The position numbers and the translations under genes were made by a program. Of a stretch of DNA of 64,000 bases, positions 54,365-54,445 are shown piece after piece; position 1 is the first letter of the stretch; each line of letters begins with the position of its first letter. The stretch lies in sequence record OQ540978.1; one strand, 5' to 3'. The notes beneath the pieces were generated by a model. It searched no databases. It was not told where the DNA came from and saw only the letters and a list, made by a program, of their open reading frames with translations. Origin of the DNA: Escherichia phage pEC-N1203-2Af.1.

Positions 54365-54445
54365 TAGGACTATAGACCCCTCTTTTAGTACTATGACGCT
54401 CTTTCTGTAGCGTCGTGCCCTCTCCCCCATTTGAAGCTTCCGCAT

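Follow-up and report, generated by a model that had tools for sequence, protein, structure and literature searches.

Programmed nicks in packaged phage DNA were first found in T5 in the 1960s (PMC3517423), and the described system closest to the locus reported here is that of Pseudomonas putida phage tf, in which all 14 single-strand interruptions (localized single-chain interruptions, sci) map to 5'-TACT/RTGMC-3' (Glukhov et al. 2012, PMC3517423). The nicked sites of tf occur as the variants TACTGTGAC, TACTATGAC and TACTGTGCC; a sequence with one substitution at position 1, 3 or 4 is left un-nicked (PMC3517423). In a LUZ24-like phage of P. aeruginosa, the ends of sequencing reads accumulate at GTACTATGAC (Essoh et al. 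2013, PMC3634792), and in phage Rembedalsseter the nicks seen with ONT fall at WACTRTGAC, a motif that is enriched in 60 relatives (Dougherty et al. 2025, PMC11780129). In the literature, such nicks have been suggested to serve in packaging or ejection, in recombination, or in evading defence. Our literature search returned neither an enzyme nor a function for the TACT/RTGMC (tf/LUZ24-type) nicks, and no report of the motif or of nicks in phiEco32-like phages, the two primary phiEco32 papers lying outside that search. The nicks of T5/BF23 (R/GCGCRGG) and of the phiKMV-like phages (CGACxxxxxCCTA/CTCCGG) are similar in being site- and strand-specific, ligatable, and carried by packaged linear genomes with terminal repeats; they differ in that their consensus sequences and lineages are unrelated, and nothing ties the enzymes together.

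The stretch of DNA that we analysed, hereafter the window, comprises 64,000 nucleotides of Escherichia phage pEC-N1203-2Af.1 (OQ540978.1). It is from a phiEco32-like coliphage of the genus Kuravirus, shows ~95% identity with phages 172-1 and SGF2, and represents the reverse complement of a permuted genome, with the following layout.

1-16 kb: middle genes
16-48 kb, - strand: late genes
48-64 kb, + strand: early genes, behind three sigma-70 promoters at 50715, 50934 and 51239

The three near-consensus sigma-70 promoters lie within 550 bp on the + strand (50715-51267; two at 12/12 and one at 11/12) and are the cluster of early promoters known from phiEco32 and SU10. Approximately 13.5 kb of the genome falls outside the window, and the equivalent part of the complete phiEco32 and SU7 genomes holds no further copy of the motif considered here.

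A sequence-only reading of this DNA had singled out an 18-nt repeat, followed by a short GC-rich hairpin, and had proposed for it a middle-promoter element, a processing site or a protein-binding site. The first exact copy was confirmed at 54382-54399; the second exists as well, although 6 nt away from where it had been placed (61618-61635 instead of 61612-61629). In addition, a diverged copy is present in the late region.

54382..54399, + strand: site 1, CTTTTAGTACTATGACGC, with the core TACTATGACG at 54389-54398
61618..61635, + strand: site 2, CTTTTAGTACTATGACGC, with the core TACTATGACG at 61625-61634
19575..19592, - strand: site 3, CTTCTAGTACTGTGACGG, diverged, with the core TACTGTGACG from 19585 down to 19576

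As the same reading had stated, both exact copies stand just past a stop codon: that of the ORF at 53798..54364 lies 17 nt before the start of site 1, and site 2 begins 16 nt past the stop (61599-61601) of a 38-aa ORF at 61485-61601, a homologue of phi32_94. Site 3 is located inside a 1487-aa late ORF (17047..21510, - strand), a homologue of phi32_26, in sense orientation. The core common to all three copies is TACTRTGACG, which together with the preceding bases reads TAG-TACTRTGAC-G, and an 8-bp palindrome, TAGTACTA, is contained within it. A separate 12-bp perfect palindrome, CGAACCGGTTCG, is found inside the late gene at 19595-19606 (- strand), 17 nt upstream of site 3, and is also kept in phiEco32 and SU7.

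All three copies match TACT/RTGMC, and the window contains no other match. The one base that varies among the Kuravirus copies coincides with the R position of the consensus, with A in window sites 1 and 2, and G in site 3 as well as in site 1 of phiEco32. Directly 3' of the 9-mer a G is found at all three window sites, at 12 of the 14 tf sites, and at 25 of the 29 sites in tf, LUZ24 and PhCF1.2, so that the Kuravirus sites and the sci sites of tf/LUZ24 are alike in the identical 9-mer with its following G and in the same degenerate R. Based on this identity with a nicked consensus, on the conservation and synteny of the sites, and on the co-occurrence of an HNH-like gene whose product has a predicted HNH-like fold (see below), we give slight preference, by analogy, to the reading that the motif is a conserved nick recognition site of the tf/LUZ24 type, probably nicked in Kuravirus by a phage enzyme. 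Among the three functions proposed earlier, a protein-binding site is the one that fits best, in the form of a probable recognition and cleavage site for a phage enzyme on DNA, whose core equals the nicked consensus. There are also differences from the tf/LUZ24 situation: those phages carry 8-14 sites per 45 kb, whereas Kuravirus has three per 77 kb, one of them on the opposite strand; the conserved Kuravirus context is longer (a pyrimidine tract, TAG, and a 3' hairpin), and nicking here is predicted from sequence. The single-strand rule does not hold in the window, where two sites are on the + strand and one is on the - strand, and the same 2:1 distribution is seen in phiEco32 and SU7; the rule is, however, already leaky in enterobacterial relatives, as phage 7-11 has a distribution of 12:1.

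The bare 9-mer is not over-represented in the window (3 observed vs 1.85 expected), and only the extended 18-mer is significant, with 3 matches at up to 3 mismatches against 0.01 expected in 100 shuffles of the window. It had been suggested that a total of two copies genome-wide, with no transcript feature at either, would speak against the motif; there are indeed just two exact copies, with one diverged copy besides, and low copy number does not refute a function since the sites are conserved across genera. The idea that the motif is a chance repeat or a duplication remnant without function would be in keeping with the two exact copies and with a 9-mer count near expectation, but it is hardly credible in view of the excess of the 18-mer and of the retention of the sites across genera while their flanks diverge, with the base at position -1 shifting in step at all three.

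This conservation can be followed in detail. The genome of phiEco32 (77,554 bp) has exactly three WACTRTGMC sites.

27941, + strand: in gene 26
70592, - strand: after gene 120
63070, - strand: after gene 94

SU7, which belongs to another genus (Suseptimavirus), also has exactly three sites, all syntenic, its equivalent of site 3 being at 27864 on the + strand. Synteny of the site positions extends over the window, phiEco32, NJ01 and SU7, plus further contigs at sites 2 and 3: the 10-mer of site 2 is intact in ten further Kuravirus contigs, and that of site 3 in five Kuravirus-like metagenome contigs, which were all that the scan returned. At site 1, the spacer from the stop codon to the downstream terminator is unalignable between Kuravirus and SU7 except for the island TACTRTGACGCTCTT. 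The base 5' of the core is G (TAG) at three of three Kuravirus sites and C (TAC or AAC) at three of three SU7 sites, and it is C also in PhCF1.2 (6/6), A24 (2/2) and 7-11 (13/13). That three dispersed sites change their -1 base in step is as expected if a single trans-acting factor reads them. Outside Kuravirus, the matches to a 15-mer in an exact-pattern scan of IMG/VR all lie inside unrelated coding sequences and are therefore attributed to chance. Genome ends or terminase cut sites were rejected as an explanation, the terminal-repeat boundaries of tf, LUZ24 and phiEco32 being unlike the motif.

The wider relatives place these sites in a broader setting. Homologues of phiEco32 genes occur in 17 gene regions of tf at E <= 1e-3, including the primase/helicase (47% identity) and the DNA polymerase (40%), and the two phages also share both exonucleases, the amidoligase/ATP-grasp cluster, terminase, portal, scaffold, capsid, and tail proteins; the set held in common by Kuravirus and the tf/LUZ24 phages includes, besides the replication, amidoligase and virion genes, a small HNH-like gene. 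Occurrences of TACTRTGMC in the relatives are given below as majority strand/other strand.

tf: 14/0
LUZ24: 9/0
Photobacterium phage PhCF1.2: 6/0
Cronobacter phage A24: 2/0
Salmonella phage 7-11: 12/1, with 1.5 expected per strand

Phage 7-11 is a C3 podophage with the phiEco32 genome plan, and its sites have the consensus AC-TACTGTGAC-G. Their majority strand is that of the early and middle genes, and seven of these 12 sites, in the sense orientation of the early genes, are grouped within the 14 kb at the early end (75.9-88.0 kb); we found no report of these sites in the literature. Sites 1 and 2 of Kuravirus are placed in the same way, in sense orientation and 9% and 19% of the way in from the early end, and for this reason Kuravirus looks like a low-copy version of an assemblage-wide trait. 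Concentration on the sense strand near the early end is likewise a feature that the Kuravirus sites have in common with the sci sites of tf/LUZ24. In T5, the first major nick lies near 8% of the genome, a position comparable to that of Kuravirus site 1. PhCF1.2 extends the motif to a marine host; each of its six sites is preceded by YTAC, its layout is LUZ24-like, and its HNH-like gene is PhCF12_31. Among IMG/VR contigs, a lineage variant, TAC-TACTATGA[T/G], is repeated in L045 on the strand opposite to the HNH-like gene, and L069 has five AGG/AGC-TACTRTGAC-G sites, also on the strand opposite to that gene.

Promoter functions were considered for the motif at sites 1 and 2. The gp36-dependent promoters of phiEco32 consist of one element, tAATGTAtA, located 6-8 bp before the start, and precede genes 6, 13, 26, 40, 58 and 68 (PMC8948821, PMC4331800). 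The middle-promoter element put forward in the sequence-only reading was not borne out, as this element is unmatched (allowing one mismatch) at both exact copies and the published promoters are elsewhere; a gp36 middle or late promoter was rejected on the same grounds. One could still think of a sigma-70 promoter with TACTAT as its -10 hexamer, or of a variant gp36-dependent element, given that TACTAT agrees with TATAAT at five of six positions and that both sites lie between genes, ahead of the next early ones. Such a promoter is very improbable: there is no conserved -35 (AGGACT at site 1, GCCCTC at site 2) and no TG extension, neither site is among the 31 sigma-70 promoters that our consensus scan called in 48000-64000, which led us to reject the sigma-70 case, and site 3 is deep inside a gene. 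A sequence one mismatch away from the gp36 element, TATTGTATA, was noted at 54562-54570, 10 nt ahead of the start codon (ATG) at 54581; sequences this close to the element occur in the window at chance frequency (24 vs 20.5 expected).

Each site is accompanied by a hairpin, and further hairpins lie downstream of site 1.

54395..54414, + strand: site 1 hairpin, GACGCT-(8 nt)-AGCGTC, DNA MFE -5.7 kcal/mol, z -2.9
61631..61650, + strand: site 2 hairpin, CGCC/GGCG core, MFE -4.4 kcal/mol, z -1.1
After the core of site 3, - strand: hairpin GGAAGA-aaa-TCTTCC, overall no better than shuffles
54446-54463 and 54531-54550 (within 54446..54556), + strand: two terminator-like hairpins with T runs, downstream of site 1 and outside the motif

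The GC hairpins that had been claimed after the two exact copies are thus real, but they are weak, and their 5' arm is formed by the 3' end of the motif itself; at all three sites the 5' arm starts within or right after the last motif bases. The 3' arm varies among relatives (GGCGG; GCGTC + TTTTT; CGTC; GAGCGTC + TTTTGT) and in every case still pairs with GACG(C) of the motif, which points to selection on the stem, perhaps as a weak terminator superimposed on the site. In SU7, the site 1 hairpin GACGCTC/GAGCGTC is followed by TTTTGT and is annotated as a terminator, and a T run follows the stem at SU7 sites 1 and 2 alike and in contig L075. An element acting on the RNA or transcription of the early operon (a weak terminator, an attenuator, or a stabilising or processing hairpin at cistron ends), with the motif conserved as the 5' arm and as the approach to the stem, would account for these features and for the position of both exact copies on the transcribed strand, 16-17 nt past stop codons; it may also hold alongside a nick site. 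As the explanation of the motif we regard it as unlikely. The invariant TACTRTG is not part of the stem, neither termination nor processing explains why there is a third copy within a coding region, and phages 7-11, tf, LUZ24 and PhCF1.2 have the same 10-mer mostly inside genes, with the hairpin absent (sites of tf, LUZ24 and 7-11 have no regular hairpin). In the window, the motif stems are 4-6 bp long with loops of 8-10 nt and no T run, and neither was called in the scan for intrinsic terminators. No Rfam match overlaps either exact copy at E <= 1, and a known RNA family (Rfam 15) was rejected, as only a tRNA-Arg reached the gathering threshold in the window. Intrinsic terminators and the T4-type PeSL promoter/stem-loop cassettes resemble the present case in being short stem-loops in intergenic spacers of early regions; the window hairpins, unlike these, have no T run or promoter consensus and stems of only 4-6 bp, and the conserved part is outside the stem.

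The most likely enzyme for nicking at these sites would be a conserved 104-aa HNH-like protein, which we treat as the candidate nickase.

5789..6103, + strand: candidate nickase gene, 104-aa HNH-like protein, homologue of phi32_58, phrog_4590 ("unknown function")
5744..5752, + strand: exact gp36 element TAATGTATA, 37 nt upstream of the HNH-like ORF
tf 16129-16416, + strand: conserved HNH-like ORF (TTG start)
LUZ24 15622-15933, + strand: conserved HNH-like ORF

The element at 5744-5752 is the counterpart of a gp36-dependent middle promoter that has been reported for phiEco32, where it precedes gene 58 (PMC4331800). The phi32_58 protein is small and basic, and with 62% identity over 92 aa it ranks highest among all proteins of tf and phiEco32. 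Its tf copy matches HNH PHROGs at 4e-5, and weak, sub-threshold Pfam HNH matches are seen in 30 of 40 members of the phrog_4590 family, in which H57, N67, N71 and N80 are invariant. An AlphaFold model (pLDDT 72) shows a beta-beta-alpha unit at residues 53-84, and a Foldseek search against the PDB gave no significant match (E~3), most of the top matches being HNH nucleases. With the Geobacter Gme HNH (4h9d), the phage GVE2 HNH (5h0o) and I-HmuI (1u3e) the protein has no significant sequence similarity; unlike these small stand-alone nicking HNH endonucleases, it lacks zinc-binding cysteines and is not encoded next to terminase genes, and it has a conserved N-terminal segment of its own, RGETGxGSxSxDAxRHRARR. 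The GenBank records of tf and LUZ24 do not annotate the HNH-like ORF but one that overlaps it in a different frame ("transmembrane"; tf_29, gp26); since the product of the HNH frame shares 59-64% identity with the E. coli phage protein, this frame is very likely the real gene in both.

The gene is common to tf, LUZ24, PhCF1.2, 7-11 and Kuravirus, and was found in 253 phage records, which include Kuravirus, LUZ24-like, tf, Rembedalsseter and 7-11-like phages as well as Cronobacter, Proteus, Aeromonas, Vibrio and Photobacterium phages. Around the gene in 33 IMG/VR loci, the gene strand has 66 occurrences of the motif (8 expected) and the opposite strand has 6. Vibrio phage 1.262.O provides a negative control: it has a related primase/helicase, ligase cluster, endonuclease I and exonucleases, but neither the HNH-like gene nor a site. 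It is conceivable, if somewhat short of probable, that phrog_4590 is the TACT/RTGMC nickase, mis-framed in the tf/LUZ24 records, that the system extends over a wide range of podophages with hosts such as Pseudomonas, Escherichia, Salmonella, Cronobacter and Photobacterium, and that Kuravirus has a minimal version of it with three sites.

By analogy with tf, we infer that Kuravirus DNA may be nicked at the three sites by the HNH-like protein. The phage-encoded enzyme would be made from behind the gp36 middle promoter and would recognise the asymmetric sequence (Y-rich)-TAG-TACT^RTGAC-G; in the middle or late period it would bind the site in progeny DNA and cut the motif strand between T and R, and the ligatable nick would survive packaging into virion genomes. 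The predicted nicks are between T54392 and A54393 (+ strand) at site 1 and between 61628 and 61629 (+ strand) at site 2. Transcription would presumably not be blocked, because the cut strand would be the non-template strand at sites 1, 2 and 3.

The active-site neighbourhood of the candidate is a further feature in which Kuravirus differs from tf/LUZ24. Asp at residue 56 is kept in at least 90% of the family and is replaced by Gly in the Kuravirus/Suseptimavirus clade, such that the Kuravirus and SU7 copies read VGH...RVE (G56, E75) against VDH...RVR in every other clade. In HNH enzymes, a metal is usually bound by the Asp that precedes the catalytic His, so that the Kuravirus/SU7 enzyme may be altered or inactive. 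This substitution would suit a scenario in which the nuclease of this clade is catalytically impaired and the site is retained for binding, or, more generally, one in which the HNH-like or another phage protein binds without cutting, as a mark for regulation, replication, packaging or ejection. The low density of sites (three per 77 kb), the conserved context (CCTYYTTYTAG...G plus hairpin), which is longer than that of tf, and the 8-bp palindrome in the core would also suit binding alone. We consider it a rather unlikely alternative: the core 10-mer does not differ from that of the phages in which it is cut, neither the catalytic His nor either Asn varies, and the correlated R-to-E change beside D-to-G might, speculatively, compensate by restoring an acidic ligand.

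Should the Kuravirus sites be nicked, the nicks of tf/LUZ24 would be no peculiarity of Pseudomonas phages but an ancestral trait of a large group that includes phiEco32, a phage that comes with transcription maps and genetics. With the HNH-like protein as the nickase, the role of phage-genome nicks would be testable by E. coli genetics, with one gene and three sites for which clean knock-outs are feasible. In practical terms, nicks have consequences for long-read sequencing, for in vitro packaging and for the engineering of these phages, which are therapeutic candidates. The mis-framed annotation in tf/LUZ24 may help explain why no enzyme has been proposed.

The surroundings of sites 1 and 2 gave several further observations. 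Between the two terminator-like hairpins downstream of site 1 lie ~65 nt (window 54429-54558), which could represent a small RNA or tandem terminators; matches to sRNA models in this interval are far below threshold (MicX, 24 bits vs 75). The gene that follows has been swapped, the window having a 105-aa ORF (54581..54898) where phiEco32 has gene 119 (265 aa); the swap covers window 54587-54879 against L001 7158-7815, with breakpoints ~190 nt from the motif and past the terminators. A boundary of a mobile or mosaic segment was consequently rejected as an account of the motif, as the replaced segment starts ~190 nt downstream of site 1, at 54587. Past site 2, at a distance of 23 nt, a near-palindromic hairpin, GCGTAGGGAATTCCCTCTACGC, is present at 61658-61680 with no T run after it; it is invariant in all examined Kuravirus contigs and partly kept in SU7. 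In vB_EcoP_EcoN5 (L081, 3224-5945), a ~1.5 kb tandem duplication is found downstream of site 2, in which genes of 77, 71, 50 and 120 aa occur twice, and this may explain the three BLAST places of that record.
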